The position numbers and the translations under genes were made by a program. Positions 9,746-51,131 of a stretch of DNA of 59,939 nt are shown here, one piece after another. A model generated the notes under the pieces. That model saw only the letters and a program-made list of their open reading frames with translations, was not told where the DNA came from and did no database searches. Every line of letters starts with the position of its first letter. Within the stretch, counting starts at the first letter, position 1. Source of the DNA: a virus (lineage: Duplodnaviria; Caudoviricetes); IMG/VR virus record IMGVR_UViG_3300050016_000385, positions 1 to 59,939 of that record. One strand, given 5' to 3'.

Positions 9746-9775
9746 GGGATTCACTGTTTAAGTTTGTGGGTTGAG

Positions 9776-11561: not shown

Positions 11562-12054
11562 CTGACTTCGGAACAAATCCCGTGTCGGCGAACTCCCGAA
11601 GTTCCTCTTCGCTCCAACCGGCGAACATGTCTGTGTCTCGATCATTTTTGGCGCTGAGGCCGAAAATATCCTTCAGTTCCCGCAAGGCCGCCACGCGAGC
11701 TGAGTCGCTGTCGCCCTTTCGGGCGATGTCGGCGTTCAACATGATGATTTCGTTTCTCCCAATATCCACCACCCGCGCCAGGCGTTTGCCCGATTCGTCG
11801 ATCATCGCGGCCAGCTTCTTCTCGCAGGCTTCGCGGATGTGCGGCTTCGCCATCAACTCCGAGCCCAGCACGGAAGGGTTGTTCGATTTCGGGTAGGCGA
11901 TTTTGGCGGCTTTGCTTTGATTGCCTTTGAACGCCTCAACGAAGGCCAGTTCCTTCGGCGTCCAGGTCGGCTGTTTGCGCGGACCCTTGGGGCCAGTCTT
12001 TTTCTTGGGGCCTGCCTTCTTCGGCTGAGACTTCTTAGCTGGCTTCTTCGGCAT
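11500..12054 (-). CDS. terS: terminase small subunit
   Basis: WTPKELAFVEAF-GNQSKAAKIAY-ELMAKPHIREA HTH pattern, RVAALREL; directly upstream of TerL. Confidence 0.85.
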   Translation of the reverse strand: MPKKPAKKSQPKKAGPKKKTGPKGPRKQPTWTPKELAFVEAFKGNQSKAAKIAYPKSNNPSVLGSELMAKPHIREACEKKLAAMIDESGKRLARVVDIGRNEIIMLNADIARKGDSDSARVAALRELKDIFGLSAKNDRDTDMFAGWSEEELREFADTGFVPKSVAARVLSGHGAPPAQPDSAK

Positions 12055-13414: not shown

Positions 13415-13504
13415 AGCTAGGGTGTTTTTGCTCCTGGTCCACCGTCCACTTGCGTAAAAGTAGTCAGGCAGAGCATCCTGTTGGGCGGGAAAAGGGGGAG
13501 TTCC

Positions 13505-13873
13505 ATGAAACGCTGGTTGCTGGTCTCGTTACTCACGCTTCCGCTCTTTGGGCAATCCTTCATCAACGACGATTGCTACCAGTTCAAAATCCATCTCACC
13601 GCATACGATAGTCAATCTTCAAACGATTCGGTAGCCGCCCGCGCTCAAGGAGCCGTCGATGCAAGCACCAGTCTCGGCTATGTGGTAGGGGTAGCAGATG
13701 CGCTCGATGGGCAAGCCTTTTGCCTGCCTGACGGCTTTCGCGCGGGAGAGCTGAAACAGGTCGTCATCAGGTACTTTGATGAGCATCCGACCATTCTGCA
13801 CGAATCGAAGGTCCGGGGTATCCGTGCTGCATTTACTGCCGCCTATCCCTGCCCCGCGCCAAGCGCTCACTGA
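13505..13873 (+). CDS. Rap1a/Tai-family immunity-like secreted protein
   Basis: Signal peptide MKRWLLVSLLTLPLFG|Q; GYVVGVAD...FCLP...VVIRYFDEHP...AFTAAYPC; GGGGGAG RBS. Confidence 0.85.
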   Translation: MKRWLLVSLLTLPLFGQSFINDDCYQFKIHLTAYDSQSSNDSVAARAQGAVDASTSLGYVVGVADALDGQAFCLPDGFRAGELKQVVIRYFDEHPTILHESKVRGIRAAFTAAYPCPAPSAH

Positions 13874-19800: not shown

Positions 19801-21927
19801 GAGGTCTTCTTTCGAGATCCGCGCACGGGCAGTCGAGAGGGCTTTCGCGGCGGGAGATTCGTCGGGGATATTGGCTTGGGTGGAACCGAACTTGTACTTC
19901 TCGGCGGGAGTTGTTTCAGTAACGCGCTCACCATTTGCAGCAGGAGACGCCGGAGCCTGGTTCGTCTGCGCCGCGACAGATTCCGGTTCAGATGGAGCGT
20001 TATCTGCGCCTGCATTGGCTGATTCTACCGCCTTCAGCCCTTGAACTTCCTTCGCACCCACAAACCTTTCCGTCTTGCCATCTACCGTGACCGTGACCAC
20101 GGGAGATTTTCCTTGGGGAGAAACGTACTTCACTTCTCCCGAGCGGCCGTCGGGAAGGGTTACGGAGTCACCTTTTTGGAACGAAGACTCTTTTTCACCC
20201 TCCGGAGCACTTGCTGGAGCAACTGATTGAGGAGTTGGGGCGGGGCTTGGTCGAGCAACTGATTCAGTGCCTCCGCTTGGGCCTGTCGGTCGGGCAGCGG
20301 CCAGTGCCGCGGCGGGAGCGTTCGATACTGCTGGGGCAGTTTCACCCCTCGATTCTACCGCAGGCGCGGCTTCTTCCACTTCGTCCGCTCGGAACTCAGG
20401 AATAGCTGCTGCTTGCGTTTCTGTGGGCCGTGTGAAGACAATCCCCTTGCTATCGGTCTGAAGCACCCCCTCGCCAACCATGCGATTCAGAACGGCCTTT
20501 GCATTCTCGTAGCCCAGTTTCAGGTTGCGCTGGAGGACGGTCGGCGACACACGCCCATGCTGGTCTAAGAAGTCTTCGACGGCCGCTTTTGCATTCTCGT
20601 AGGTGAAGGCCTGAGGCGAGACTCCGGGAGGCTGGGCGACTGCTGGAGCGGGTGAAGGTCGGGGAGCTTCTACGGGGGCTTCTGGCGGCGCGGGCGCCGG
20701 TGTCTGCGCGGCTTCGCGGTCGGCTACATACATCGCTTTGGCTACGTCGGGATCGCCGAGAGGCTTGTCCGGGGATGCCGACTTCGCCATGTATTCGGCG
20801 AGTTGGGGGCGAGTCAGCTTCGATATGTCCGCCACTACATCGTCGGCATGGCTGGTTGCTGCTCGGGCGCGGGCGTTGAACTCGGCAGTTGCGGAGGCTC
20901 GTCTGGCGGCTTCTGCGGGAGAAACCTGCGGCAGTTCCGCGCCTGCTCTTTTGTAAGCACCTTTCTGACGTAGGGAGTCGATTATCCCTGGTGGATTCTG
21001 GCGGAGTATCTCTCGTGCCGCATACCGGGCCTCGGCTTCGGATGCGAACGAGACCGGGTTGCGCTGGGCGTCCCGGATGTAGCCGCGCTTCCACAGCAGA
21101 TCGGTGAGCGCGTCTTCGGGACTGGCCGCAGATCGCAACCCGCCGTGAGCAAAACCGCCAGCAAACCCTCCGGCGATGCCACCGACCTCTTGCAGCAGTG
21201 CCTTGGTGTCGGGTGAGGCTTTTACCGCGTCGGCCAGCTTTCCCGCGCCGTAACTTCCTGCCTCAGCGCCAGCACCCGCGAGGAGGGCGAGTTCCGGCTG
21301 TGCGACCGCCCCCGCGATCATCACCGGGGTTGCGACATCCGTCGCTCCTCTCAGAATCTCCGTTGTGCCTCGTTCTGCTTGCTCCTGGTAGGTTCCAGGT
21401 TTCCTGGGATCGGGCGGAAGGTCCTTCACTCCGTGGTAGAGTTCAGCGGCACCGCGATAAGGGCGCAGAAGGGGATCACTGAAACTAAGATCGTAGGCGG
21501 CTTCTTGCGGCGTAGCCTTGCCTGGGTTTGTGAATTTTGGACCCACAGGCACGGGAACGGCCCCCGGCTCCTCTACGTTGACGTTCGGCTGCGCGGGCGC
21601 GGCCAACGTTCGATTCGGCCGCGGCGTGGCGACTACTTGTTCGGGATGCGGATTCTCTAGACTTCCACTCGTGGGCTGGATCGTGAGCGGCATTCTTGCG
21701 CGGCGTTCTTCTTGCTCGGTGATTAAACCTTCAGCGACCGGACGCGGTGCGGGCGGAGTCGGGCCGAGAGAAAGACGCGGAGACACAGGCGCTACCGGGG
21801 CAGGGGACTGCGGACGCGCCACCTGATCGAGCGCAGCCGAAGATTGCTGCGTCGTGGGCGCTTCCTCTACCTGGTCCGCCGAGTAACTCGGGGCTTCTTC
21901 GACTTCGCTGAGTGCGTAGGACGACAT
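13867..21927 (-). CDS. large polyvalent internal virion (ejection) protein: FtsK-gamma-like wHTH, KOW/SH3-like, 2H phosphoesterase, ParB-like, zincin-like domains
   Basis: 2686 aa in the T7 gp16/P22 gp16 position; motifs LQRNLKLGY, HVT/HAT, VVNGHHRY, HEELIH. Confidence 0.85.
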   Translation of the reverse strand: MSSYALSEVEEAPSYSADQVEEAPTTQQSSAALDQVARPQSPAPVAPVSPRLSLGPTPPAPRPVAEGLITEQEERRARMPLTIQPTSGSLENPHPEQVVATPRPNRTLAAPAQPNVNVEEPGAVPVPVGPKFTNPGKATPQEAAYDLSFSDPLLRPYRGAAELYHGVKDLPPDPRKPGTYQEQAERGTTEILRGATDVATPVMIAGAVAQPELALLAGAGAEAGSYGAGKLADAVKASPDTKALLQEVGGIAGGFAGGFAHGGLRSAASPEDALTDLLWKRGYIRDAQRNPVSFASEAEARYAAREILRQNPPGIIDSLRQKGAYKRAGAELPQVSPAEAARRASATAEFNARARAATSHADDVVADISKLTRPQLAEYMAKSASPDKPLGDPDVAKAMYVADREAAQTPAPAPPEAPVEAPRPSPAPAVAQPPGVSPQAFTYENAKAAVEDFLDQHGRVSPTVLQRNLKLGYENAKAVLNRMVGEGVLQTDSKGIVFTRPTETQAAAIPEFRADEVEEAAPAVESRGETAPAVSNAPAAALAAARPTGPSGGTESVARPSPAPTPQSVAPASAPEGEKESSFQKGDSVTLPDGRSGEVKYVSPQGKSPVVTVTVDGKTERFVGAKEVQGLKAVESANAGADNAPSEPESVAAQTNQAPASPAANGERVTETTPAEKYKFGSTQANIPDESPAAKALSTARARISKEDLAGDGIDVGGNHVTVRYGIKGEDVEGVKKYLASLAPFEASLGPTETFPPSEHSDGAAVIHAPIVAPELHQINAELEKHGDFSEPNFDYKPHATVAYVKPEKASRYVGMSVTSGQKFPVSEIAITDRQGNQQVVKLEGKGETTAAAPALPRDLAGAKPRYGYQDKLFQLQFEDPRDLALYTVAQSTPNKAHGRYMEWLRGQFPKLSDEDIVRGGRSIREQIKPLAREGNPAAGPLVIPSRQGEPASKPASETQAPQAETIAAKGETKPVREFAAHEVEEAPAAKKSLAPEPTKPERERQTLGLPPEPGRVGEMNIRDLKVAPNKFQYKLSTDAEGVGTLLKETKVWNPDLAGMVSVWRDLSDGKTYVVNGHHRYELAKRLGVKTLVVRHIVAPTANAARAIGAEQNIADGRGTALDAAKFFRDSAITPADLKEKGISLGEATVAKGVALANLSEPIFNQVVQGDLTQGRAVVIGEATSDPAEQKAVLDLVERKERSGKKVSDDTLSELIRLVKGSGQTTETTADLFGTQQINRSLALEKAEISAHIKQQLAKDKKLFGFVSKGDRASELERGGNKIDVEKSKQLSTGAAQAEEVYNRLSARGGPIANILDESARQLADGDNAASVKSEAYSRIRAEVSKTLGGGEGSGTERHEGTPEPPEGVTHSPKPDDSVDLFSGAQPVFHEPLPLSARTAKDINFDLIETRAGIAPYLRVNDAAAKAISHSLGHAFLGVNIDKASVGRASAALRSAASSAEANKVDAKAIRQLRGLADALDEALDRDPNAGVNLVRQGPREIGTAHEELIHSAQRRAGKGNIGFGVPWQESLKMPAFAELGANSIVPQLRAAGLPAPASTIVAEGIVDIMRGEAALEGVSITDALEAAKVYFESALAHYGIEHLNELQAIQDYANDTERETNVTHHPEVLAIRRAGEAALARTIARGTGKALGRTGATVQSEAQLGTEERNRAPGAKDSGPPDDTGKADKGPSSTTKGPAYSTQPIGLTDEELEDWSKSRGFRVEPAGEQLDIFGGNQSVMRVFRAGRGGKEQKGLVYQSQLDQLSQPKPEPTEPFALTGGETREQQPTLFGAGDLGEIVGNPKAERGIQLPSQQRDRGTSLFKPEHRKEDRESLLTGESGTLTPSLSAAKAVYAKFINRIIDRNLDLGDKYKRVAEHDPAIATMLKEKDNAPRYFHAKAESNVEQVAKGLNESQVRLAAMMADSDSREFLEENHPEQFQEAQDDPAVMDAVKQFKQYQDELAAIRISLGWHVRRDLSTLEDENGDWSVVDRDGNEVETFGKSQKDAQEYAEEVGEVLDHLKRTYPEHKREPLMGRTDEGPSLGASYGGIKAPRPDKKQRIATAQYFYEHGAKDFSGYVKSFTQAYHAALNQKIYDSLTDEATKWKEGTAQPPQIEYRGQTYYSPDVAKSMKLAKPENRPKKILEYRAYDPAKDDKVMIRDFENGWSTTTTGRPGISALDRYLAPKDVVDALEHYDMTRGAEEGNSIRRFFQDQIVGLFGPNIHVLNIMRRLATTVGAGAWDPRVWPYYQRLFFSKELRERMAEGLADDAIDTLSKWGTYTNTKDIGSLHDYVLGNMDPRNWARWTIGKFSKGVLFDPKFLRGFGGLDQKARVLAYDFLHARAGMNEEEAAKNVEDGFGNYNKANWTERMKRWGRALLFPGWDFSSLKWFLRHPIKTALPALVVMGANLALNKAGKNRDSDKYDYSYLHYGDRKYRTGLITEPMALHLVEPILAAGRAALEGGDTRDIAGAAGQGMLRGGGGLAGDLRPDIGVATELLSNRQYLGGEKEIWRPEDANIPGTVLPTRKLEKMLAFSVVKALPAVSRFLDTSFESLDRATVAGSVIGVTNYKSGAEERLKANEAKAMGYSQTLSTLAEREPDAAERFVQEPAKAPYLMFNKDLAELGKDLKSIDTEMERVKIAEIPYADRKRALEDLRTSRSQLLQSADALDEELTTAKLQMKKAAGQ
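16788..17063 (-). CDS. candidate overprinted +1-frame gene (91 aa, helical)
   Basis: MSPITQKFW...LSPEQLLEGLEKHWDELEQQYK...ELKNEIVHLVQRI; GAGAGAG RBS, TATGCT upstream; genome-typical codons in +1 frame. Confidence 0.6.
   Translation of the reverse strand: MSPITQKFWPSGEPGKRLSPEQLLEGLEKHWDELEQQYKAKPSSELKNEIVHLVQRIAAHRTTQGKPIKDLLPRLKALPTPPSPSASPTKS
17790..17993 (-). CDS. candidate overprinted +1-frame gene (67 aa)
   Basis: TATAAT (18019-18024), GGAGG 5 nt before TTG; helical LSAAEKEAVLNDMKEHQSLQKAL. Confidence 0.4.
   Translation of the reverse strand: MQTSSMNPPGNSPTATTPQASNPKPTAASAPKYPKLSAAEKEAVLNDMKEHQSLQKALHTPPSPTIQ
19779..20015 (-). CDS. candidate overprinted leaderless +1-frame gene (78 aa)
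   Basis: TAGAAT (20022-20027) 6 nt before ATG; RLRRLLLQMVSALLKQL. Confidence 0.35.
   Translation of the reverse strand: MQAQITLHLNRNLSRRRRTRLRRLLLQMVSALLKQLPPRSTSSVPPKPISPTNLPPRKPSRLPVRGSRKKTSPETAST
20160..20345 (-). CDS. candidate overprinted leaderless +1-frame gene (61 aa)
   Basis: TAGAAT (20352-20357) 6 nt before GTG; AEALNQLLDQAPPQLLNQLLQQVLRRVKK. Confidence 0.45.
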   Translation of the reverse strand: MKLPQQYRTLPPRHWPLPDRQAQAEALNQLLDQAPPQLLNQLLQQVLRRVKKSLRSKKVTP

Positions 21928-25069: not shown

Positions 25070-26320
25070 TTATTTGCGCAAGTTGTGCGCAATCCAGCCG
25101 TTCGCCAGGGTGTAGCACTGCTCCTCATCGGAGCCGTCTCCGTCAATTTCGAGGTTGAAGACGGAACCGACCAAGCGCGAGATGATCGTGAGAAAAATAT
25201 GCAACGCCTGTACCCAATCGCGTTGCGCCCAGAAACGATGCGGTGGCGTCACTTGCTCCTCGTTGCCCATGTCCCGCATCGGGCCGTCGTAATCGTGCTC
25301 AATCAATCGCCGCACTTGTCGCCAGCCGCGCTGGGTCAGGACTTCATCGTGGCCGCCGATCACGTCGGAAATCTTTTTGATTCCGTCCCGCGTGATGACG
25401 CGAGTGTTCCCGCTGAAGCATGGCCCATTTCCGCCTCCGCCCCCGCCTGTCCCGCCTCCGCCATAGGCCGGCGTCGTAATTGTCCCTAGGAATACTGTGG
25501 CTTCGTTTCCAGTTACTTGCGGGTTGGCGGTGGTGGCGAAGTAAGTTTGTGCGCCGCCCGCATACCTCGCATCGAGGCAGTAGACGTAGTAAACCGTCGA
25601 ATCGAGCAACGGCGTGATGGCGCCGCTGTTATAGTTCACCAGCCCAAGAGTGGCGGGCGAAATCGAGCTGGGGTATTGCACCTGGAAAGAGGCCACGTTG
25701 ATGGTGGCTTGATTCACCCCCGCCCCGGTCGAGGCTGTGAGTGGCTGCGTGGTCGGAGTATAGGCGGCGTTTACCTGGGTCAGTGCAGCCGTTCTGAGCA
25801 GCCCGGACCAGACTCCCACCGGGCCACACTGCTCGGGACTCGAGAAAAACTGCCAGTCGTTCCAGGTCTCTCCGTCATAGGAGCTTTGCAGCCGGAAGAA
25901 GCGGGTGATGTTCGGGTCTTGATCGGTCCACACCAGTTGCGAACTGATGCCGTAATCTTTCAGGTTGGAACTCTGGTCGAAGTTGAGCGTCGTGGCCGAC
26001 TGGAGATGATGGAGAATCGGCGTGTGGGTGCTGTTCGATCCGGCTTGAATCCGGGCCCGCAAGATCGAGACGCTCACCGGCACAACGCTCTGCGGGTTGG
26101 TGACGAAGACGACGAACTTCCCGTCGATGCCGACCACGGTGAACTGCGCCGTCTGCGGAGGCGCGACGGTCGAGGGATTGCCTGCGGGCGCAAGATCACT
26201 CGTTCCGGCCGCCGCCTGCAATGCGTTGATCTCCGCGACTAACGCATTCCAGCCTTGGAACATCTGCTGCGGGTCGCCACTCTTGAAGCCCCCGGCGTAA
26301 CGCGCCAAAGCGGTGCTCAT
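25070..26320 (-). CDS. tail-associated protein with C-terminal Hint (BIL-like) domain
   Basis: Gly-rich linker then CFSGNTRV (Cys 25418-25420), TPPH block B, IAHN followed by LRK-stop. Confidence 0.85.
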   Translation of the reverse strand: MSTALARYAGGFKSGDPQQMFQGWNALVAEINALQAAAGTSDLAPAGNPSTVAPPQTAQFTVVGIDGKFVVFVTNPQSVVPVSVSILRARIQAGSNSTHTPILHHLQSATTLNFDQSSNLKDYGISSQLVWTDQDPNITRFFRLQSSYDGETWNDWQFFSSPEQCGPVGVWSGLLRTAALTQVNAAYTPTTQPLTASTGAGVNQATINVASFQVQYPSSISPATLGLVNYNSGAITPLLDSTVYYVYCLDARYAGGAQTYFATTANPQVTGNEATVFLGTITTPAYGGGGTGGGGGGNGPCFSGNTRVITRDGIKKISDVIGGHDEVLTQRGWRQVRRLIEHDYDGPMRDMGNEEQVTPPHRFWAQRDWVQALHIFLTIISRLVGSVFNLEIDGDGSDEEQCYTLANGWIAHNLRK

Positions 26321-26342
26321 CGTGTCATCGTCAGAGCAGCCT

Positions 26343-29057
26343 TCACCGGCCCGGCCTCGCGCTCGATAGTGGCGTCGCATAAATGCACGCCCAGAACAGA
26401 TCGCCCCACTGTCCCGGCTTCTTGTCGTTGGTGATGCGGATGCGGAATTTCTCGTTCTGCATCCGGGCCGCGCAGGAGTAAGGCACGCCGGCGATGATCG
26501 GCTTCGGCAGCCGCTTCACCATCCCGACATTCGCTTTGGCGGTTCCGGCCAGCGGCGGCCCACCATCCTTGGGGTCTTTTCCTCGTAACGCTAAAACCTC
26601 GCAGCCCAGTTGCCCGTTGCCGTTCAGATTGACCTGCACTCCTCCGAGTTGGCTCGGCTTCAGCAGGTTGTCCTGCGGGCTGTCGTTGGGGCAGACGCTT
26701 TCGACCACCCAGTCGATGCCTTCCCCGTTGTCGTCGAAGACGTAAGGAATGACCGCGTTGACCTCTCCGTCCGGGTTCGAGGAAGCGTAAAGAATCTGCG
26801 ACTGCGTGGTGCCGGGGTCCATTGTCGCCGGCGGATTCACCAGCGGACGATAGGCGCGGATCGCCAGGTTCGCGGCGATGTCATCGACCGACCACTTGTA
26901 GCATTCCCCGGTCGCAATCTCTTTTCCGATGTAGGGCGAGAAGTGGATGGGCGGCGCGAAGTCGGGCGACTCCTCGTAGTTCACCTTGAGCACTTTGTTG
27001 GGGACCGTGCTCTGGCCGAGCGGCACGCCGATGCGAATCTCCTGGGTCTCGTCGTCGATCATCACCCAGATCGTCTGCGCCGCCGCCCAGTTGATCTGGC
27101 CCCAAGTGATCGGAACTTCTTTCGAGATACGGACGGGAAGCGTGCCTTGAAAAATATAAAGCCCGGAACGATGCACATAGGCCATGAAGCGGGTGCAGAC
27201 ATCGACCGCCCGCGGTCCGCAGGGGCCGGAGCCGTTCCATTGCGGCGCTGCGTCCCAGGTGTTCGGTTCCGTCGCCGAGGGAGCGAGTTGATAGCCGGAG
27301 CGTTCTTTCATCAGATAGACGATGCCCTGATACTCCCGCACCGCGACTCGACGCTCACCGTTATTTTGCGCGACCTGGACCAAGCCACTGTCTCCGTAGA
27401 CAGTCTCGGGATCGCCCTGCTCCGACACATACCAACCGCTCGGCAACGAATCCGGGGCGTAGATCATGCGGTCCAAGGTGGGTGAGTAATACACGTCGGA
27501 CACCGGAGGCACCTGGATATTCTGGAAATTGCCACTCACGTCGTTCAGCGTGGCTTTCAGGTAGGTGTCGTCGAAGTTGAAGAAGGCGCTGGTGGTGGTG
27601 TTGTCGTTGATCAGCGTCGAAGTCTCTTCGACGCCGTTCACCACGTCCGCGATGGTCACGCCGCCGGGAATCAAACTGAAGATGTTGGGGTTGTTGAGAT
27701 TGAAGGCGGCGGTCGGAATGTTCGGCTCGATCCAGAAGTACGGCCCCGCATTCGAGATGCCGTAGCCTGCGGTCTGGCTCAACTGCCCGGCGGGAGTGAA
27801 GGCGCAGATCCGCGCCTGCGTATTCGAAGGCCCGATGGGAAGATTCGCGACATAGAGCTGATAGCCGTTGGTCGGCGAGTTGTAGACGATGACCGAGGCC
27901 TGCGTCATGCCGGAGATGTAGCCATTCCGGTTCAAGAACAGCACGACCATGTAGCGCAGCCCGGCACAAATATTTCCCGCGGGCGCAACCAACGCCCCAT
28001 TCGACACCGGAGGCGCGGCCCCGGTTCCCGTGGTGTTGACGTTAGTCGGGGCGGCGAGCCCTGCCGGCGCGAGGTTCACCAGGGCGTAACTCGAAAGCGC
28101 CGGCGCCGGATTGCCAGTGGTCACGTCCGCCTCGTAAACGTTGTAGCCGATGGGCTTATAGGGAGCGGCCAGCGCCTGCACCCAGGCCGGAAGCACGGGC
28201 GCGGTGACCGTGAACTGATCGTTGAGTGTGGTGTTGGTGTATTTGTAGGCGAGAATCAGTTGCGCGTCGGTTTCGCCGACTCCATTCACCAGCGTGACCA
28301 TCAGGTACACGTCGCGGTTGGCAGCGAATGTTCCAGCGCCGGAGTTGCGGGCCACGGTTGGGATCGCGGGCTCGGGCAGAGCCTGCGCCATGATCGCAGT
28401 CTGCTCCTTCCAAGTCACTCCGCCATCTGCGACCGTGCCACCGGCGGTGAGGGGAAATACCGGCTGGTTCGCTCCACTGATTCCCGCCACCGTGCAGATG
28501 TAGGTGTGCCCGTTGCCTCCCACAGGCGCCGCCGGCGTCACTACTTCCCCGACGTTGTATGGAGTGGCGGCGAGCCAACCCATCCCCACGGGCTTCATGG
28601 AGAGCGGATCAAGGAAACCAGTCTGGAGGTTGAAGACGGCGGGTGCAGCCAAAGAGTTCACGAGGTTGCCGAAGGCCAGATAATCCTTCTGGTAGGCGGA
28701 GGCGACCTGCATACTGGCCCCGGCGGCCGGCGGCACCTGCGGGCTGGAGATCAGCTTCAGGACGCCCGAGCCCACGGGTTGTTCCTGATACAGATGCCCC
28801 AAACCACTAAAGGCCACCGGGATCTGCACGTCGGGGTTCCCGCTCAATTTGGAGCTAACCAATCCGGTCACGGCGCCGCCATCCGGCAGAACGAAGCCGA
28901 ACTGACTTTGGATGCCGTCGCGGGTGCGCACGCTGGTCAAATGAAAGCGCGAGTTCTTCGCCACGGCAAGAACGCCGAGAGGAAGATTGGTCGGGTCATC
29001 CTGCTCAACCAATGAACTCCAGCGCGTGATTTCGTGAGGCAGGCCGGCGAGATACAT
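26343..29057 (-). CDS. tail nozzle / tubular protein B-like (P22 gp10 / T7 gp12 position)
   Basis: 904 aa beta-rich; YVSEQGDPE, GPCGPRAV, MAYVHRSGLYIF, ISKEV propeller motifs; CBM-like WLAATPYNVGEVV...DGGVTW insertion. Confidence 0.75.
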   Translation of the reverse strand: MYLAGLPHEITRWSSLVEQDDPTNLPLGVLAVAKNSRFHLTSVRTRDGIQSQFGFVLPDGGAVTGLVSSKLSGNPDVQIPVAFSGLGHLYQEQPVGSGVLKLISSPQVPPAAGASMQVASAYQKDYLAFGNLVNSLAAPAVFNLQTGFLDPLSMKPVGMGWLAATPYNVGEVVTPAAPVGGNGHTYICTVAGISGANQPVFPLTAGGTVADGGVTWKEQTAIMAQALPEPAIPTVARNSGAGTFAANRDVYLMVTLVNGVGETDAQLILAYKYTNTTLNDQFTVTAPVLPAWVQALAAPYKPIGYNVYEADVTTGNPAPALSSYALVNLAPAGLAAPTNVNTTGTGAAPPVSNGALVAPAGNICAGLRYMVVLFLNRNGYISGMTQASVIVYNSPTNGYQLYVANLPIGPSNTQARICAFTPAGQLSQTAGYGISNAGPYFWIEPNIPTAAFNLNNPNIFSLIPGGVTIADVVNGVEETSTLINDNTTTSAFFNFDDTYLKATLNDVSGNFQNIQVPPVSDVYYSPTLDRMIYAPDSLPSGWYVSEQGDPETVYGDSGLVQVAQNNGERRVAVREYQGIVYLMKERSGYQLAPSATEPNTWDAAPQWNGSGPCGPRAVDVCTRFMAYVHRSGLYIFQGTLPVRISKEVPITWGQINWAAAQTIWVMIDDETQEIRIGVPLGQSTVPNKVLKVNYEESPDFAPPIHFSPYIGKEIATGECYKWSVDDIAANLAIRAYRPLVNPPATMDPGTTQSQILYASSNPDGEVNAVIPYVFDDNGEGIDWVVESVCPNDSPQDNLLKPSQLGGVQVNLNGNGQLGCEVLALRGKDPKDGGPPLAGTAKANVGMVKRLPKPIIAGVPYSCAARMQNEKFRIRITNDKKPGQWGDLFWACIYATPLSSARPGR

Positions 29058-33321: not shown

Positions 33322-33533
33322 CCCAGCTTGCCGCAAGTATGCGGGATTCCATTCAGATGGGGATTACAGCAGGCATTGCACTGTTCTTCTGGAGTTGCCC
33401 ACCGCATCTTTCCGTCGTGAGGTACGTCTGTGTCTTGACACACCGAACAAGTTCCCGGATCGTCGCCGGTACGGTACGAATAGTCGCAGCAGCAATCACA
33501 GACCACCATTCGAGATGCAGCTACGTGGCTCAC
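33318..33533 (-). CDS. small Cys-rich protein
   Basis: Several CxxC motifs; GTGA coupling. Confidence 0.55.
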   Translation of the reverse strand: MSHVAASRMVVCDCCCDYSYRTGDDPGTCSVCQDTDVPHDGKMRWATPEEQCNACCNPHLNGIPHTCGKLG

Positions 33534-34093
33534 CCCACCTGCGCCGCGGTAACCGGCGGCTTCGCGTTCGCCTCTATAATGGCCGCTTGTTCTTTCGTGG
33601 CGACGATCCCCAACACTTCATCTTCGTGCAGAATCAGTTGTGGCTCGTCGTTGATCGCGCCCAGCGGAGCTTCGGAGCCGGCATACTTGCCGAACAGGAC
33701 GACGCACCCGACGGGGATGCGCAAGGGAATCAAGCGGCCTTCTTCGGTAATCCGCCCCTGTCCGCAACTGAGGACGACTCCGGCGTTCGGCTGGTCGCGG
33801 TCGGTCTCGCGCAGGAAGATTCCATGCTTCGAGTATTCGGCCTCGGGAACTCGGCGGACCAGCAAACGGTCTCCGATGGCAATGAACGTGGTGCCTTCGC
33901 GCAGGGCGTTGGTCCCCGGCTCGAAGATTTCGCGGGTGATGGCGAGGGCTTCTTCTTCAGTGACGCGCTTGCGCTCGAAAGCGTGCGGGAAGGCAAGGTT
34001 TTTCGCCAACGGTTGCTCGGCGGCTGGAAGGTCGGAGGTTTTCTCCAGCGCCAGCTCGACGGATGTCTTGGTGCGTTCTGCGGTTTCGTTCAT
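33530..34093 (-). CDS. groES: phage co-chaperonin (GroES/Cpn10 family) with N-terminal extension
   Basis: IGDRLLVRR, GIFL loop, GVVLSCGQGR, VGCVVLFGKYAGSE, LILHEDEVLGIV. Confidence 0.9.
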   Translation of the reverse strand: MNETAERTKTSVELALEKTSDLPAAEQPLAKNLAFPHAFERKRVTEEEALAITREIFEPGTNALREGTTFIAIGDRLLVRRVPEAEYSKHGIFLRETDRDQPNAGVVLSCGQGRITEEGRLIPLRIPVGCVVLFGKYAGSEAPLGAINDEPQLILHEDEVLGIVATKEQAAIIEANAKPPVTAAQVG

Positions 34094-41341: not shown

Positions 41342-42676
41342 TTAGTTGACGATGAAGTAGCTCACGCAGGCCGGATTGCTCGCAATGACCGCGCCGATGG
41401 TGAAGGTGAAAGACGTCCCCCCGGTTCGCGCCGTGACCACTGGATTCAGGAGCGTGGAAAGTGTGGTGTTACAGGTGACGCTTAATTTCGTTCCTAGACT
41501 CTCATCCACGCTTAACAGGATCTGACTGTTGGCCGTGACTGCGGTCGTGTTGACTACCAATGTCGGATTGGTTCCGGTTGGCAGGGCCACGCTACCTGCT
41601 GCCGCCGCCGCACACACGGCGGGAGAGGCGCTGCTGGAACAATTTGTAGTCGTTAAGAGCGCCGGAGTTGTGATTGAGGTTAGGAATGTCGGGGCGGTTT
41701 GCAAGGGGATTCTTCCGGTGCCGGTAATGGCCTGCGGATTCAGTAGGTCGAAATTCGCCCCGTCATAAATCATGCAGGCGGGTTCGTTGGTCCCGATGTC
41801 TCCCGGAGCGATAAGGCCGCCAGCGAACCGAACAATCGTTTTCGCACCCAACCCGCTAAAGTTCACGGTGGGGTTTGTGGTCGTGCTTGCAGCGGAAGCC
41901 TTGAAGCAGCCATAGCTCCCGGTGGCTGGGCCGGTCATGGGCGGCGCTAAGGTAACGACGTAGGCGTTGACCGCCCCGGTATCGGCGGCGTAGAGATTCT
42001 GCGGTAATGTTTGCCCGAGAACAAATGCCGTGGTTGCGACTTGCGTCGTGTTAGTGTTCGCCGCCGCGGTCGGCGCGGTCGGGGTGCCAGTCAGTCCAGG
42101 CGAAGCCACGGGCGCAATCGACGAATCCACATACGCCGAGGTGATTGTCGTGCAGGTGGGAACCGCCGAAGCGCTCACTGCGGTCACGGCCTGATTCGTA
42201 CACGTCCCGCCCGGAGTCGTGCCCCCGATCTTGGTGCAGGTGATGACGCCCGCGGACGTCGCCGTGCAATCGCTGCTTAAATTCGCAAGGACATTGCCCA
42301 GAGCGAACGTCGAGCTGCTGGTCCCACTGGGGCATTCCAGACTGACATTCGTGGTCGAGGTCTGGAAAGTGCAATTCAGAAAGTTCGATTGCGCGGCCGG
42401 AGTAGCGGCGTTGAAATTCGCCGTCGCCAGATTGCTGCCTCCGGCTACGGTCACGTTGCTACCAGAACCCGCGCCGGTACAGGTGAGGGCGAAAATACTG
42501 CCACTCTGCGTGGCGGTGCATCCCGAGACCAGATTGAGCGTCACTCCGCCGCTGGCTGTGCCTACGGCGCTGCCGTTGTTTTGTACGGTAATCGAGCCGC
42601 GGGAGCCATTACTGGACTGGCTGAAGGCAGCCAGCGTGAGCAACAGGAAGACGGCAATAAGGAGCCTGGGTCTCAT
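41342..42676 (-). CDS. tail fibre protein with Sec signal peptide
   Basis: MRPRLLIAVFLLLTLAAFS|Q; fibre motifs ASPGLTGTPTAPTAAANTNTTQVATTAFV and YAADTGAVNAYVVTL...GLGAKTI...YDGANFDLLNP; 14 Cys. Confidence 0.85.
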   Translation of the reverse strand: MRPRLLIAVFLLLTLAAFSQSSNGSRGSITVQNNGSAVGTASGGVTLNLVSGCTATQSGSIFALTCTGAGSGSNVTVAGGSNLATANFNAATPAAQSNFLNCTFQTSTTNVSLECPSGTSSSTFALGNVLANLSSDCTATSAGVITCTKIGGTTPGGTCTNQAVTAVSASAVPTCTTITSAYVDSSIAPVASPGLTGTPTAPTAAANTNTTQVATTAFVLGQTLPQNLYAADTGAVNAYVVTLAPPMTGPATGSYGCFKASAASTTTNPTVNFSGLGAKTIVRFAGGLIAPGDIGTNEPACMIYDGANFDLLNPQAITGTGRIPLQTAPTFLTSITTPALLTTTNCSSSASPAVCAAAAAGSVALPTGTNPTLVVNTTAVTANSQILLSVDESLGTKLSVTCNTTLSTLLNPVVTARTGGTSFTFTIGAVIASNPACVSYFIVN

Positions 42677-42678
42677 AT

Positions 42679-43032
42679 TTAGTCGTACTCGATGAAGCGC
42701 AACGTGGTTGCGGTGGCGGTGTTCGAGCGGGCTTTGATCAGGTTGTCGGCCGCCCGGTAGTTGGGCGTGCCCACCGTATTCTGGGCATTCATTCCGAGCA
42801 GCGGCCCGCGATCCCCTACCCTGTGGAAGTTCGGGATCTGAATCGGCTCCGAGCCAAACGACACTGTGTTCAAAGCGACGAAGTTGTCCACAAAGCTCGA
42901 AAACTGGATGCCTTGGGGCGCGGTGCCTTCGTCTTCCATGAACTCTATGCCTCGAGTCGGCCCGGTGGCTGCGATGGTGACAAACGCTCCAGCATTGCCG
43001 TTGAGCGCGATCAAACGTTCGCGTTGCGCCAT
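42679..43032 (-). CDS. hypothetical beta-rich protein (possible structural)
   Basis: 117 aa, tight spacing. Confidence 0.7.
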   Translation of the reverse strand: MAQRERLIALNGNAGAFVTIAATGPTRGIEFMEDEGTAPQGIQFSSFVDNFVALNTVSFGSEPIQIPNFHRVGDRGPLLGMNAQNTVGTPNYRAADNLIKARSNTATATTLRFIEYD

Positions 43033-43763: not shown

Positions 43764-45422
43764 CTAGTTGTTGAGCACTTCGATTTTCAGATCCTGCATT
43801 TGCGGTGGGGTCGTGCTTTCAGCGCCGCTGGTCTGCAGGAATACGAAGAACACAGCGTCCTGATCGAGCACGTCCGCGGTGATGGCTGCGGTCGAGCCTT
43901 CGATGTAGGGGTTGCCGATGGTCCCCTGAGCGCTCACCTGCTCAATGCCAAAGCCGCCCGGCATGATGGTGCCGGTTGTGCCAATGGCGTTTACGGTCCA
44001 GTCGCATTCCTCGTGGTACTTGATCGCAGCCGTGCCAGTGGCGGTGATGTCGCCGGCAAGTTTGCAGATGATCAAAGGCGTTCCGGTAGAGAAGTCGGTG
44101 ATGTCGCCGATTTCCACGTCGATGCCGGTAGCGGTGCCGCCCGTCGAAGGTGTGGCCGTCACGTCGAAGGAGAAGCGGACGGTGCCGCCGATTCCCAGGT
44201 TCTGCAGGAAGCCAGTGGGCAACTGCACGGTTCCTACTACGCCAAGCTGCCCAGCAGTCAAGGCGGGAGTCGCCGTAAACGGCCCGTAGTTCAACTGAAA
44301 CCCATAGCCTGGCCGCTGGCTCGGTCGATAGGCAAAGGTGGTGTGGCTTTGCGGGTTGGGATTGTAGGCCGCCGCGATTCCGCCAGATTGGGGGATCAGC
44401 GAGGTCGTAGTCACCGGGCCCAACATGGTGGCCGCGGATCCAATCGCGCAAACCGGATAGGCGGTGAAGGTGGTCGAGAGCGTGCAGTTTGAAGCCGTTA
44501 CTGGCAGGACATAGGCGGCGCTGTTGTAGGTCAACCCTCCCCAAGGGAGCCACCCATAGGCGCCGGTCGAAGCTGCTGGCGAGTTGTACTGCAGCACGTT
44601 GGTGCCGGAAGCGCTGGGAGTCAGGGTGTGAGTAACGGAAGCCACACTCCAACCGCCGAGCGCGTCGATGTAGATGTCGCCTGCAACCTCCGCGCTGTTC
44701 GGCCAGGTGCCGCCGGTGGTGGCCGACTGACAAACCAAGCCTGCGGTCGCGGCGCAAGTCAGGTTCGCGCTGGCCGTCGGTACGGCCAAAGCCGTGAGCG
44801 TCGAGGGCTGCAGGTTATACCACGCTGGGCCAGTCCCTGAAATATCGTTAATGAGCTGGTTGGCTTGCAGCGTGCCGCCCACAGTGGCCGCCGTCGTGAT
44901 GGTCGCAGCGGTGCAGCCATCGTCATAGAACTTTTGGTCAACGATCACCGTGCCCGCTTTTCCGCCGAGATCGTTCAACGCCTCGCGCAGTCCGCACGTG
45001 CCGGAACGCAGATTGAAGCTGTAGTGCGAGTTCGCCGGGCTCATGTTGATGGTGCAGGTTGAGCTGGTGAGGGTCGGCGCCGTCTCAGTCACGGTTTCCG
45101 TGTTCGCCGAAACTGCATCGATGATGTTGACGCTGGCATTGGCGTTGAACGGCTGGACGCCGCGCACTCCGGCATGGACCGCCTCGAAGCAGGCTTCCGC
45201 CGGGAAGGTGTAAGTCCCGCCCATTCCCGAATTGAAGGTGGAAGGGATGTTGTAGTTGAACTGGCTGGCGACGCGCTGGTTGTCGATGGCCCACGCGCTT
45301 AGCCCGTAGTTTCCGGCGCTCGAGTTCGCGTTGTAGCCGCCGCCGCTTTGCGAGAATGCCAGAGCCGTCGAGAGTACGATGACGAGCGCCAGCAGTGAGG
45401 TTACGATCCGACGTGGTTTCAT
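43764..45422 (-). CDS. Sec-signal beta-rich fibre/appendage-like protein
   Basis: MKPRRIVTSLLALVIVLSTALAFS|Q; SGTCGLREALND; AGGAG RBS; 10 Cys. Confidence 0.75.
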   Translation of the reverse strand: MKPRRIVTSLLALVIVLSTALAFSQSGGGYNANSSAGNYGLSAWAIDNQRVASQFNYNIPSTFNSGMGGTYTFPAEACFEAVHAGVRGVQPFNANASVNIIDAVSANTETVTETAPTLTSSTCTINMSPANSHYSFNLRSGTCGLREALNDLGGKAGTVIVDQKFYDDGCTAATITTAATVGGTLQANQLINDISGTGPAWYNLQPSTLTALAVPTASANLTCAATAGLVCQSATTGGTWPNSAEVAGDIYIDALGGWSVASVTHTLTPSASGTNVLQYNSPAASTGAYGWLPWGGLTYNSAAYVLPVTASNCTLSTTFTAYPVCAIGSAATMLGPVTTTSLIPQSGGIAAAYNPNPQSHTTFAYRPSQRPGYGFQLNYGPFTATPALTAGQLGVVGTVQLPTGFLQNLGIGGTVRFSFDVTATPSTGGTATGIDVEIGDITDFSTGTPLIICKLAGDITATGTAAIKYHEECDWTVNAIGTTGTIMPGGFGIEQVSAQGTIGNPYIEGSTAAITADVLDQDAVFFVFLQTSGAESTTPPQMQDLKIEVLNN

Positions 45423-45534: not shown

Positions 45535-47325
45535 TCACTGATAGACGCAAAAACTGTTGCGCTCGGCGGTGAGAGTGCCCGCACCATTCGCGGCGGCTTG
45601 CAGCACTACGCTGCCAGCGGTAGTGGACGTCGTCACACCGGCAGTGACAATGGCTGGAAAGTCGGTCGCGGCGGTAACCGTGCCCGTGTTAGCGACCGAC
45701 TGAGAACCAGTCCCGACGCTGGACTTCCAGGTTCCTGTGGTCGCCGTGACTGCGCTGGTCATGTTGAGACTGACGGTCGCGCCCGCGGGCACTAGCACCT
45801 TGAACTGAGGGCCAGCCGTTGCTGCAGATGCCTGCCACGTGATTTGACACGTCAGCGTGTAGGTGTTCGAGGCGGCAGCGTAAAAGAACACCGGAGGAAT
45901 GTTTGAGAACGATGTGGTCGCGTTCGTGTAAGTGGGACTGACGGCAATCGTGACCGGGATCTGCTGCACCCCCGAGAACGCGTGCAGCCCTTGATGCAAC
46001 ATGAAATCATTGGGCGATCCGTAGATGATATCGGTCGCGACGAAAGGAGGGGGAGCCGAGGTTTCCGTGAAAGACAGTGCTCCAAGTCCCAAGGTTGCAG
46101 GCGCGCTCTGGTCGGCCAGTTTGAGGTTTAACTGAGTTCCGGAACCAAACAAACCGGTATAACCGCTAGTGACGCCGCCGAACAAAAGATTGGGACTCGC
46201 TCCCGTCAACACCACGCCCCCGGCATGGGAGATATTCAGCCGGTCGGAGAAATCCACGCTGAAGCCTTCATCCGCGCTGTGGGCGACGTTCCGCCAGTTG
46301 AGTTGATCGGTTTGCGCCAGCCGCAGGAAGCCGCTGGCGGCTGGGTTCGCGGCGGTAGAGACAATGGAACCAGAATTAATGAAAAGGAAAAAGCCGGTGC
46401 CCCCGAGGAAGTTGGCGTTGCCGTTGAAGGTGGCGTTGCCCTGCACATTCAGTGTCCCGCCGATATTCAGCCCGCTTGCGATCGACTGCACCAAAGTGTT
46501 CGGGGGGTTGGTGAAAATCGGAGTCGGGTAGAAGACGCCACTGGTCGAACAGTTCCCGGTGGGCGCACCGTTTGAGATGTTGATCGTGGCCGCAGCCCCG
46601 CCATACATACACCAAGTCTGCGGGAAGCCGGAGATTTGGCTGCCGTTCTTGTTGACCAAGTTAACGGTGTAATAAGTTCCGGTGGGTACGAGCTGGTCGC
46701 TGAGATAAACCGAGCAGAAGCTAGTATTGAGGGCTTGCGGCGTCGCTCCGGTCACGAGCGGCACGCTTTGCGCGTACTGCGTCCAGCCGGTCACCGTGCC
46801 TTGGATGGTTTCCCCGCCCGAGGTGGTGCTGATGGCCACTCCGTAACCCGTGGCGGAATTCGGCTGCACCCCGGGCGCATTGACGTAGACCGTGCCCATG
46901 CCGCTGAGGTTGATCTTGGCCTCCGGCGAGACCGCGCCCACTCCGCCGGCTCCGATGTAGTAGAGAACGACGTAGTAGGTGCCGGCCGCAAGCGTCCCGG
47001 CGCTGCTGTAGCCGAGGGAAAGGACGGGACTCGCAAGGGCGTCAGGAACCCCCACCACGTTGCCCTGGGCGCTGGTGTAGCAGGCGCTTTGCTCGGTGGC
47101 GATGGTCGCGGTTCCCGCGATGATGGCGGGCTGGCTGAGACTGAAAGTTAACGCGCCGTAGTTGACCGGGCCGCCGGTCGCCGTCTGCACCTGCCCCAAG
47201 ATGACACTCGAAGGGCCGGCTGAGGATCCGGGACCGGGGACGACCTGAGCGCAGATTTGCGGGGTTAGAAGCCCGCAGAGGGCCAAAACCGCCAAGCGGA
47301 AGTTATGCGGGAATTTGCGCAGCAT
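45535..47325 (-). CDS. Sec-signal fibre-like protein with FN3-like module
   Basis: MLRKFPHNFRLAVLALCGLLTPQICA|Q; GTLAAGTYYVVL..SPEA; GGTLNVQGNATF fibre-shaft repeat; 6 Cys in mature part. Confidence 0.75.
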   Translation of the reverse strand: MLRKFPHNFRLAVLALCGLLTPQICAQVVPGPGSSAGPSSVILGQVQTATGGPVNYGALTFSLSQPAIIAGTATIATEQSACYTSAQGNVVGVPDALASPVLSLGYSSAGTLAAGTYYVVLYYIGAGGVGAVSPEAKINLSGMGTVYVNAPGVQPNSATGYGVAISTTSGGETIQGTVTGWTQYAQSVPLVTGATPQALNTSFCSVYLSDQLVPTGTYYTVNLVNKNGSQISGFPQTWCMYGGAAATINISNGAPTGNCSTSGVFYPTPIFTNPPNTLVQSIASGLNIGGTLNVQGNATFNGNANFLGGTGFFLFINSGSIVSTAANPAASGFLRLAQTDQLNWRNVAHSADEGFSVDFSDRLNISHAGGVVLTGASPNLLFGGVTSGYTGLFGSGTQLNLKLADQSAPATLGLGALSFTETSAPPPFVATDIIYGSPNDFMLHQGLHAFSGVQQIPVTIAVSPTYTNATTSFSNIPPVFFYAAASNTYTLTCQITWQASAATAGPQFKVLVPAGATVSLNMTSAVTATTGTWKSSVGTGSQSVANTGTVTAATDFPAIVTAGVTTSTTAGSVVLQAAANGAGTLTAERNSFCVYQ

Positions 47326-47536
47326 TTTGCTCAGTGGATGATGCAACTGGCGTGGAAGCCGCCACGGGCGCGGCTTGCGGCGTTTGTTTCTGAATTTGTC
47401 GCAGCAGTTTCCGCCGTTCGCGGCGCGTAGCGAGAGGAAGCGCGCGGGCCAGCCGCGACACGATGGGTGCGCCGTGGTTGTGGTAGAGCTTGCGGCGCAG
47501 TTCGATATGCTCCGGGTTGAGGCTTTCTGGGTTCAT
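47303..47536 (-). CDS. small basic hypothetical protein
   Basis: GAGGA RBS, ATGA coupling. Confidence 0.55.
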   Translation of the reverse strand: MNPESLNPEHIELRRKLYHNHGAPIVSRLARALPLATRRERRKLLRQIQKQTPQAAPVAASTPVASSTEQNAAQIPA

Positions 47537-48109: not shown

Positions 48110-48751
48110 TCATCCGAGCAGCTTTCCGAGCCTCACGATGATCACGGCGCAGGCCAGGACCGCCGCCAGGGCTCGGGCGCCGACATGCTGGCGCCACAGC
48201 GTCGTCTTCGAAGGACCTTTCACCGGATCGATCTTGCGGCCCGGGATATGGCCCTCGGTGCGGGCTTTCTTCAGGCCATCCTTGGTGCGCTCGGCGATGA
48301 CGTTGCGCTCGAACTCGGCGAACACCGCCAGGATGCCGAACAAAAGCTTTCCCATGGGAGTGGTGAGATCGAAGTTGTCTTTGACGCTAACGAAATCCAC
48401 CTTGGCCGAGAGCAGGTCGCCGACGGTCTTGTGCAGGTGCTGCACGCTGCGACCGAAACGATCGAGGCGCAGGACGGCGACCGCCTGGATATCGCGCAAG
48501 CCCTTGGTCGCATCCGCCATCAATTCATCGAGCTGGGGACGGGAGGCTTTGGTGCCGGAAACGCCGCGGTCCACGTACTCGCGGATGATGGTGTGCTTCT
48601 GGGCTACGCACCAGGCTCGCAGCTCCAGCAACTGCACTTCTGGATCCTGGCCGCGGAACTGGTGTCCGCCGGCTTCGTGGTGCGAGGAGGGATTCTTGCC
48701 GCAGATCTCACATTTGTCGGTGGAAACGCGGGCATAGAGGGCGACGTTCAT
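48110..48751 (-). CDS. small serine recombinase (resolvase/invertase family)
   Basis: YARVST, YVDRGVSG, RPQLDELM, RLDRFGRS, FAEFERNVIAERTKDGL. Confidence 0.95.
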   Translation of the reverse strand: MNVALYARVSTDKCEICGKNPSSHHEAGGHQFRGQDPEVQLLELRAWCVAQKHTIIREYVDRGVSGTKASRPQLDELMADATKGLRDIQAVAVLRLDRFGRSVQHLHKTVGDLLSAKVDFVSVKDNFDLTTPMGKLLFGILAVFAEFERNVIAERTKDGLKKARTEGHIPGRKIDPVKGPSKTTLWRQHVGARALAAVLACAVIIVRLGKLLG

Positions 48752-48815
48752 GCTGCCGCCTCGTCGGAGATATATTTCCAAGGCAAAAGGTTTTTAGTAG
48801 AGTTGCACGCGCAGC

Positions 48816-50675: not shown

Positions 50676-51131
50676 CTAGTTCTGCGGTTTGTGGCACCAG
50701 TGCTTCCCGTCCTCGGCGGTGAGTAGGATGCGGGATTTGTCGGTGCAAGTCCATCGTTGTTTTAACGGGTAGCACATCAGTTCTGCGTAACACAAGCTCT
50801 GGTCAGGGGAGTACAGGCACGCGTCCCGGTTGTAGTTCCAATCGGCCTCATATCCCGCAGGACACTGCGCGTGGTCGGCGGCGATAATCTTAAGGTCGGA
50901 AGGCTCCCCCTTGATTGCCGGTACGTCTATCGGCTCGGACGGTGCGAGCAACTTCTTTAGGTCAACGAGAAAGTCGCCCGCGTTATCTTCAAGGTGCCAG
51001 CGGCCTTCGGGGTCTTGCCAGAGACATACATTATCTTGTGGACAGCGCGGGACAAAGCCTATCGCATCCTGTCCCCAACCCATCCCCACCATCCCCAAGA
51101 TTGCCAGCAATAGGCAGAGCAGCCGTTTCAT
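50676..51131 (-). CDS. secreted Cys-rich protein
   Basis: MKRLLCLLLAILGMVGMGWG|Q; 8 Cys in mature part; CTDKSRILLTAEDGKHWC. Confidence 0.75.
   Translation of the reverse strand: MKRLLCLLLAILGMVGMGWGQDAIGFVPRCPQDNVCLWQDPEGRWHLEDNAGDFLVDLKKLLAPSEPIDVPAIKGEPSDLKIIAADHAQCPAGYEADWNYNRDACLYSPDQSLCYAELMCYPLKQRWTCTDKSRILLTAEDGKHWCHKPQN

Follow-up and report, generated by a model that had tools for sequence, protein, structure and literature searches.

A predicted Sec-exported, disulfide-stapled and trimeric fibre-type receptor-binding protein in a prophage of a soil Acidobacteriaceae genome

By the textbook view, tailed phages build their particles in the cytoplasm, and their fibres with them. A gene within a 59,939-nucleotide (nt) stretch of caudoviricete DNA (IMG/VR record IMGVR_UViG_3300050016_000385, positions 1 to 59,939; the window, hereafter) raises the question of how a tail-fibre sequence is to be understood when it begins with a secretion signal. 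The gene occupies 41342-42676 on the minus strand, has 444 codons, and encodes a protein of 444 amino acids (aa), here called the fibre protein, in which a signal peptide is followed by a cysteine-rich region, a tail-fibre repeat, a shaft domain and a C-terminal knob. The fibre protein is predicted, with high confidence, to be a Sec-exported, disulfide-stapled and trimeric fibre-type receptor-binding protein of a prophage. The fuller account towards which this work leans, and which is held to be somewhat probable, is that of a modular, trimeric receptor-binding fibre of an Acidobacteriaceae prophage that is made as a secretory precursor and attaches to the particle late.

Export is suggested by the N-terminus itself, which consists of MRPRLLIAVFLLLTLAAFS followed by QSS and is laid out like a Sec leader, with n-, h- and c-regions. 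By a hydrophobicity rule, it follows the pattern for Sec and signal peptidase I, with the n-region MRPR, the h-region LLIAVFLLLTLAAF, and A-F-S ahead of the Q. The rule, a crude one, asks for positive charge and then an uncharged 10-residue window with a mean hydropathy of at least 2.0, and the cleavage site was assigned by eye with the -3/-1 rule. A sequence-only reading of the locus had placed a Sec signal ahead of the repeats, and both the layout of the leader and its retention across the family agree with that claim. A leader is present in 67 of 77 database relatives that carry a strict knob signature, and 88 of 116 knob open reading frames (ORFs) in fetched loci have a hydrophobic N-terminus, with about half of the remaining 28 cut by contig ends or over-extended. 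The same reading took the start codon to be fixed by a stop 2 nt upstream, an argument that fails, as this TAA (42679-42681) ends a 117-aa gene in a different frame and the fibre gene's own frame has no stop upstream as far as 43066. The ATG (42674-42676, with the stop codon at 41342-41344) nonetheless appears well placed, being supported by coupling to the upstream stop, by leader conservation, and by the character of the upstream extension, which reads as Arg-rich off-frame junk.

The fibre protein has 14 cysteines (residues 53, 66, 102, 115, 137, 147, 159, 175, 257, 301, 346, 355, 402 and 437), which had been proposed to form seven sequential pairs. Three of these pairs stand on conservation: Cys 346-355 and Cys 402-437 of the knob are near-invariant together among relatives, and Cys257 and Cys301 co-occur in the bead copies of relatives. 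The latter pair is found in 10 of 12 bead copies in leader-bearing proteins versus 1 of 50 in proteins scored leaderless, the lone pair-bearing copy among these 50 lying in an ORF that is probably truncated. For the other four the proposal is less secure, as Cys 53-66, 102-115 and 137-147 are hairpins predicted in a part of the structure model with a low predicted local distance difference test (pLDDT) score, the 159-175 pair is assumed, and an alignment-based test of the four N-terminal pairs was uninformative because the region is too variable. Mature cysteine counts are even in 64 of the 67 leader-bearing strict-knob relatives, as they are in seven leader-bearing proteins of the window (24, 16, 28, 14, 10, 6 and 8). 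Because an ordinary secretion signal is combined with paired cysteines, the fibre protein probably folds in the periplasm and not at the site of particle assembly. The host, taken here to be diderm as an Acidobacteriaceae bacterium, has three DsbA-family and two VKOR matches above cut-off in its genome.

That the exported protein is a fibre is indicated by its central region. The repeat SPGLTGTPTAPTAAANTNTTQVATTAFV (aa 192-219) and the ADTG/NAY/GLGAKTI/YDG block next to it (aa 229-306) were found where the sequence-only reading had seen them, and a hidden Markov model (HMM) comparison, proposed as a check on the repeat, gave matches of the PHROG tail-fibre families phrog_454, 2631 and 7032 to aa 188-219 at E 4.4e-8 to 3.4e-6; Pfam yielded no repeat family for aa 179-219 at E<=10. 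An exhaustive HMMER search with the fibre protein returned 9,454 relatives at E<=1e-3, to which three parts of the query match independently (aa 183-223, aa 228-325 and aa 335-444). The same ~40 residues of the first part are repeated 5-23 times in long leaderless fibres, and the bead region, aa 228-325, occurs as tandem copies in some leaderless proteins; the tail-fibre repeat is more than a chance resemblance. The bead is also matched by the tail protein family phrog_4900 at E 8e-5, and its model (aa 226-318) superposes on residues 244-339 of the tail fibre gp47 of Pseudomonas phage Pa193 with a VIA Z of 10.3 (root-mean-square deviation 2.4 over 91 aa, 31% identity). According to its published description, Pa193 gp47 (PDB 9b45, chain 2) is a beads-on-a-string trimeric shaft in which each bead has three four-stranded sheets, its beaded part in 9b45 being a fitted AlphaFold model and its N-terminus docking on the baseplate. 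The bead of the fibre protein is like that of gp47, but gp47 is leaderless.

The classical leaderless fibres, characterized by an SPxLTGxPTAPTA..NxTQ[IV]ATTAFV repeat and exemplified by P0005 (10 matched stretches) and P0121 (23), share with the fibre protein the same ~40-residue repeat and have tandem beads. They possess many repeats, no signal peptide and mostly 0-3 cysteines, whereas the fibre protein combines a single repeat with a leader and 14 cysteines, and so a family-conserved Sec-type leader and paired cysteines take the place of the leaderless state of a fibre assembled in the cytoplasm. The claim that these motifs typify classical fibres is sustained by the leaderless repeat and bead relatives, with 0.40 cysteines per 100 aa in 23 leaderless proteins lacking the strict knob signature versus 1.91 in the 67 leader-bearing strict-knob relatives. 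For the whole 444-aa protein, Pfam gave zero families at E<=0.01, NCBIfam no meaningful match and a PDB sequence-profile search no match, and a tblastn search of P0001 against 50,697 cultured-phage records likewise gave none.

The most conserved and informative part of the protein, more so than the repeat, is the knob at its extreme C-terminus, which the sequence-only reading had missed. The knob is 45-91% identical across relatives that are otherwise unrelated within the fetched loci, and the leader-bearing proteins among the best 120 database matches have mainly aa 334-444 in common with the query, at 60-91% identity. It was found in 124 viral contigs and 36 genome contigs, the latter labelled Acidobacteriota or Terriglobia (22), Patescibacteria-type (10) and other (4); 80 of the 124 viral contigs were kept, 116 loci were fetched, and in 114 of these 116 the knob stands at the extreme C-terminus. 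Other content of the window is common to no more than 5 of the 116 knob loci, a pattern that fits a horizontally exchanged module acting alone or on the host. In structure, the knob (aa 342-444) resembles the C-terminal ends of phage tailspikes and fibres, with a VIA Z of 10.2 to the depolymerase S2-4 of Klebsiella phage K64-1 (9k4a, residues 803-888), 7.7 to the K1 lyase C-terminus (7w1d, residues 559-651), 6.0-6.5 to the Pam1, LKA1 and Sf6 tailspikes, 5.9 to the R2 pyocin fibre foot and 5.7 to a snail lectin. The family PF24146 (K1-lyase_C) aligns to the knob at 24.9 bits (E 2.8e-5), under its 27-bit gathering cut-off. Thus the knob has the fold found at the extreme C-terminus of the trimer in a range of tailspike and fibre tips (K64-1 S2-4, K1 lyase 7w1c/7w1d, Sf6, LKA1, Pam1 and the R2 pyocin foot), but differs from tailspike C-termini in its two near-invariant cysteine pairs, its usual position behind a leader and the sub-threshold score of PF24146.

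The ten Patescibacteria-type contigs (L081, L087, L088, L091-L093, L095, L096, L098 and L107) belong to metagenome-assembled genomes (MAGs) labelled Patescibacteria, Saccharibacteria or Parcubacteria; either the knob is common to phages of very different hosts or these are mis-binned phage contigs.

A trimeric state is likewise predicted. An AlphaFold2 model made with 60 sequences has a pLDDT above 90 at aa 228-315 and 340-444 and is poor in its N-terminal third, and a search of BFVD gave 75 matches within E<=1e-3; the matches listed include some named as tail fibre and K1-lyase_C. For three copies of aa 185-444 the prediction is an intertwined homotrimer (ipSAE 0.91 versus 0.00 for the best of 3 controls), with a partner pLDDT of 94 or more, 96% or more of the contacts common to runs, and an interface that spans aa 185-444, tail-fibre repeat included. 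The ipSAE calibration, in which 20 of 30 solved pairs passed versus 1 of 23 single chains, is only rough for three copies and a custom alignment.

The nature of the element bears on how such a protein could be used. The window spans positions 49,418-109,356 on a contig of 119 kb that belongs to a genome of 3.93 Mb, and one gene of this contig has 74-86% identity with genes in MAGs of Acidobacteriaceae and Sulfotelmatobacter; among host marker genes, RecA gave a partial match only and RpoB no match. Because it lies inside a bacterial contig and encodes a portal, a small terminase (identified by Pfam and PHROG), an endolysin and a recombinase, the element is a prophage in a soil Acidobacteriaceae genome. 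The portal indicates that the fibre gene belongs to the block of virion genes, and the prophage is probably short-tailed, the P22-type portal being the sole ground for this guess. No Pfam, PHROG or PDB sequence match was found for the 810-aa portal, and PDB sequence searches of the portal, a capsid candidate and a 459-aa protein returned nothing useful. From 47346 down to the portal, minus-strand genes are spaced by 2-28 nt or overlap, with the exception of one ~110-nt gap; a consensus promoter and terminator scan of 38-52 kb performed at chance level and was uninformative on transcription units.

Within this gene run, the fibre gene was compared with its counterparts in related phages. In a close relative whose portal is 91% identical, the syntenic gene encodes 243 aa that have aa 2-70 in common with the fibre protein at 64% identity, a stretch comprising the leader and first disulfide hairpin, and its C-terminal part is unrelated and lacks repeat, bead and knob. 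The first mature hairpin (to aa 70) is the lineage-conserved module. The 117-aa protein encoded immediately upstream is 80% identical in the close relative, and in five of five distinct phages its homologue is followed by a variable leader-bearing gene (444, 243, 537, ~309 and 389 aa) with stop and start overlapping or adjacent. Searches of Pfam, PHROG and PDB gave no match for the 117-aa protein, which may be regarded as a candidate adaptor for exported fibres. At another locus, L051, a baseplate wedge gene and a leaderless 259-aa stub of a fibre N-terminus come first, and a 1,934-aa protein with leader and knob comes after them. Among knob-gene neighbours of at least 150 aa, 152 of 639 have leaders, and arrays of large leader-bearing proteins are present in many loci. 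Modularity of this kind suggests a fibre whose docking partner is specific to the phage. The conserved motif VQNNG of the mature N-terminus was considered as a general docking peptide and rejected as lineage-specific, as it occurs in 3 of 208 database relatives and in 0 locus ORFs of at least 150 aa.

Leader-bearing virion proteins have partial precedents. The proteins gp079-083 of phi46:3 and gp085-087 of phi18:3, two cultured Cellulophaga phages of the Pachyviridae, all begin with Sec-type leaders; phi18:3 gp085-087 are labelled structural proteins in the GenBank record on the basis of experimental tandem mass spectrometry (MS/MS) proteomics, and homologues are annotated as pectate lyase, of tailspike type. 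Like this prophage, the Cellulophaga phages encode consecutive large leader-bearing proteins in a late-gene block with a Cpn10 gene; unlike the fibre protein, their leader-bearing proteins have 0-4 cysteines and no knob, and the host is a member of the Bacteroidota. The phi18:3 proteins may be considered the closest precedent for leader-bearing virion proteins, the resemblance being one of design only. The prophage itself encodes a Cpn10 (GroES-like) homologue at 33530-34093 (minus strand).

Another point of comparison is g3p of the filamentous phages, a receptor-binding protein for which Sec export and disulfide bonding precede entry into the particle. Filamentous phages are extruded and assembled at the membrane, whereas DNA packaging in this element takes place in the cytoplasm and through a portal, like that of tailed phages. 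Literature searches, with most subscription journals and supplements outside their scope, turned up no account of a tail fibre that carries a secretion signal.

How an exported fibre might reach a particle built in the cytoplasm can be outlined in a provisional manner. The fibre gene lies in a tight run into the portal gene and is probably coupled translationally to the 117-aa gene, a layout from which co-expression would follow. The chain would be exported by Sec and cut after Ser19 by signal peptidase I, as sequence and leader conservation suggest, and host DsbA or VKOR in the periplasm would close seven disulfides, as might be expected from the even-count rule and the host genes. The knob, last out of the translocon, would set the register for three chains, after which the bead and the fibre repeat would zip into the predicted intertwined trimer, an order suggested by what is known of fibre folding. 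The knob may further bind a surface glycan, given its lectin-like fold, one shared with tailspike and pyocin-fibre tips, and the mature hairpin at aa 20-70 is a likely docking piece. The fibre would meet the particle only when the envelope is breached in lysis, perhaps via the 117-aa protein. It is from these considerations that we infer late joining of the virion, and a knob that serves as a periplasm-capable trimerisation nucleus and possibly as a lectin. A broader proposal, offered tentatively, is that many soil phages, this acidobacterial prophage among them, may assemble all of their host-recognition machinery beyond the cytoplasm, as fibres and lectin-like proteins that are Sec-exported, oxidised by host Dsb or VKOR, trimerised by a conserved, mobile and disulfide-stapled knob in place of cytoplasmic fibre chaperones, and attached at lysis, here via a lineage-specific N-terminal hairpin and possibly the 117-aa protein.

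Export does not by itself imply a place on the virion, and the protein might instead act as a trimeric lectin or adhesin that the phage makes and that stays free or sits on the cell surface, an explanation regarded as the main rival, though rather unlikely. Possible roles would include receptor masking (for superinfection exclusion or to protect progeny from debris), remodelling of the host surface and aggregation of host cells. The leaders, the even cysteine counts and the bead cysteine pair agree with this explanation equally. The conservation of the knob is unusual among receptor tips, and no phage partner co-occurs with it, the next most widespread cluster reaching 11 of 116 loci. Pfam, PHROG and PDB profile searches found no known virion-docking domain in the mature N-terminus, the gene stands between the serine recombinase, to which it is close, and the portal, upstream of the latter and away from recognisable tail genes, and the slot that it occupies varies among close relatives as do those of accessory (moron) genes. 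Set against these points are the tight same-strand spacing into the portal gene, the retention of the N-terminal module with the lineage while the distal part is swapped, which is the layout of a virion fibre, and the L051 locus, where the homologous position is that of a tail fibre behind the baseplate. Moreover, no leaderless protein of the window matched a fibre or spike family, so that an off-virion role would leave the phage without a recognisable receptor-binding protein, and the record of the cultured phage phi18:3 lists leader-bearing proteins as structural on the strength of MS/MS.

That the protein is not exported at all is improbable. The hydrophobic segment would then be an uncleaved anchor or a structural helix of a cytoplasmic fibre, or translation would begin downstream of it, and disulfides would form only after release. 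In keeping with this, the Shine-Dalgarno sequence before the ATG is not strong, there is a GTG at codon 45, and some leaderless relatives with the same knob keep their cysteines. Yet the next in-frame ATG is only at codon 247, the n/h/c layout and small -3/-1 residues recur in most relatives despite unrelated mature N-termini, the leader and hairpin are 64% conserved in the close relative, and even cysteine counts and the bead cysteine pair track the leader statistically. A role for the knob as a host secretion sorting or anchoring signal, similar to the C-terminal domain of the type IX secretion system, with the protein as host surface cargo, might be suggested by the conservation of a ~105-aa extreme C-terminal domain on diverse leader-bearing passengers. 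This reading was rejected as highly improbable because the knob is viral, mobile, without a partner and single-copy in the 3.93-Mb host genome; it is carried by 124 viral contigs with host labels that span several phyla, occurs on leaderless proteins as well, matches tailspike and fibre C-termini in fold, and is matched by no NCBIfam sorting-domain model.

The late-attaching virion fibre is thus the preferred account, and some of the points just raised weigh against it also, namely the position of the gene, the N-terminus without a known docking domain and the knob without a partner family. To these may be added that the knob proteins of L002, L056, L059 and L102 seem genuinely leaderless and keep many cysteines, so paired cysteines do not strictly require a leader. 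The seemingly leaderless L102 protein is encoded by a prophage gene of a cultured strain, Terriglobus albidus DSM 26559. Export, cleavage, disulfides and virion attachment of the fibre protein are predictions, with leaders called by the crude rule given above, and the trimer result may partly reflect model memory of solved trimeric tailspike C-termini. The Cellulophaga parallel, too, has its limits, as tblastn of the window proteins against the two phage records (L118 and L119) gave no match at E<=1e-2.

Were leader-bearing, cysteine-paired receptor-binding proteins of this type widespread, one assembly step of such phages would have to cross a membrane or wait for lysis, host range and defence would come to depend in part on the Sec and Dsb functions of the host, and annotation pipelines that count a signal peptide against a virion protein would misfile the genes. 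The knob, at ~105 aa, offers a handy marker for finding them, and may provide protein engineering with a compact trimerisation unit functional in the periplasm.

Table 1. Features of the fibre gene and of associated genes in the window
Feature	Coordinates	Strand	Basis or remarks
Sec-type signal peptide, aa 1-19 (MRPRLLIAVFLLLTLAAFS)	42620..42676	-	Sequence; predicted cut before Gln20
Mature N-terminal region, aa 20-185, four close Cys pairs	42122..42619	-	Cys positions, predicted hairpins
Single phage tail-fibre repeat, aa 186-223 (SPGLTGTPTAPTAAANTNTTQVATTAFV)	42008..42121	-	PHROG tail-fibre families
Fibre-shaft bead domain, aa 226-318, Cys257-Cys301 pair	41723..42001	-	pLDDT, VIA, phrog_4900
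C-terminal beta-sandwich knob, aa 342-444, Cys346-355 and Cys402-437	41345..41653	-	Conservation, VIA
Leaderless 117-aa gene, ends 2 nt before fibre ATG	42679..43032	-	Conserved upstream companion
P22/SU10-type portal, 810 aa	38239..40671	-	Atlas 0.97 to P22_portal clusters; structure TM 0.66-0.81
552-aa leader-bearing lineage core gene, just upstream of portal	43764..45422	-	10 mature Cys
Leader-bearing protein of ~600 aa with 6 mature Cys (start position uncertain)	45535..47346	-	75% identical homologue in close relative
807-aa leader protein, 24 Cys	2584-5007	-	Pfam He_PIG and Big_2 Ig-like domains
546-aa leader protein, 16 Cys	5004-6644	-	
1,037-aa leader protein, 28 Cys	6641-9754	-	
Small leader-bearing protein, 151 aa, 8 mature Cys	50676-51131	-	

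The fibre protein is one of several leader-bearing proteins in the window (Table 1), and the sequence-only reading had proposed that the exported set as a whole is fibre-derived. For the 444-aa protein this is borne out by repeat, bead and knob behind a leader; it does not extend to the set, as the 552-aa protein has weak jelly-roll matches and the others have no PHROG family. Leaders are present in 108 of 113 full-length homologues of the 552-aa protein and mature cysteine counts are even in 106 of those 108, and in most of 26 related loci the gene lies directly upstream of the portal. In its model (pLDDT 81.5) some parts look like jelly-rolls or lectins, but the PDB matches, to jelly-rolls of lectins and glycosidases, are weak and of low TM. 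PHROG gave no match for 6 other leader-bearing proteins of the window or for 7 seemingly leaderless knob proteins, and among five other leader proteins Ig-type Pfam domains occur in that at 2584-5007 alone.

A second cluster of three large leader-bearing proteins, at 2584-9754 on the minus strand, lies beside the endolysin, the usual position for fibre and spike genes. The endolysin, of glucosaminidase type, is encoded at 2094-2579 (minus strand; E 1e-18), and the serine recombinase, with a Resolvase N-terminal domain (E 7.6e-40), at 48110-48781 (minus strand); together they suggest the approximate ends of the prophage. A further small leader-bearing protein of 130 aa, with 3 mature cysteines, is encoded on the plus strand at 13481-13873. 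A 2,686-aa polyvalent protein (13867-21927, minus strand), which may be an internal virion or ejected protein, has matches to the C-terminal part of phrog_21 (annotated as portal), to 2'-5' RNA ligase and to FtsK-gamma-like domains. Weak, sub-threshold Pfam matches to Hint (Vint) and RelA_SpoT were seen at 25070-26380 and 12035-13414, both on the minus strand.

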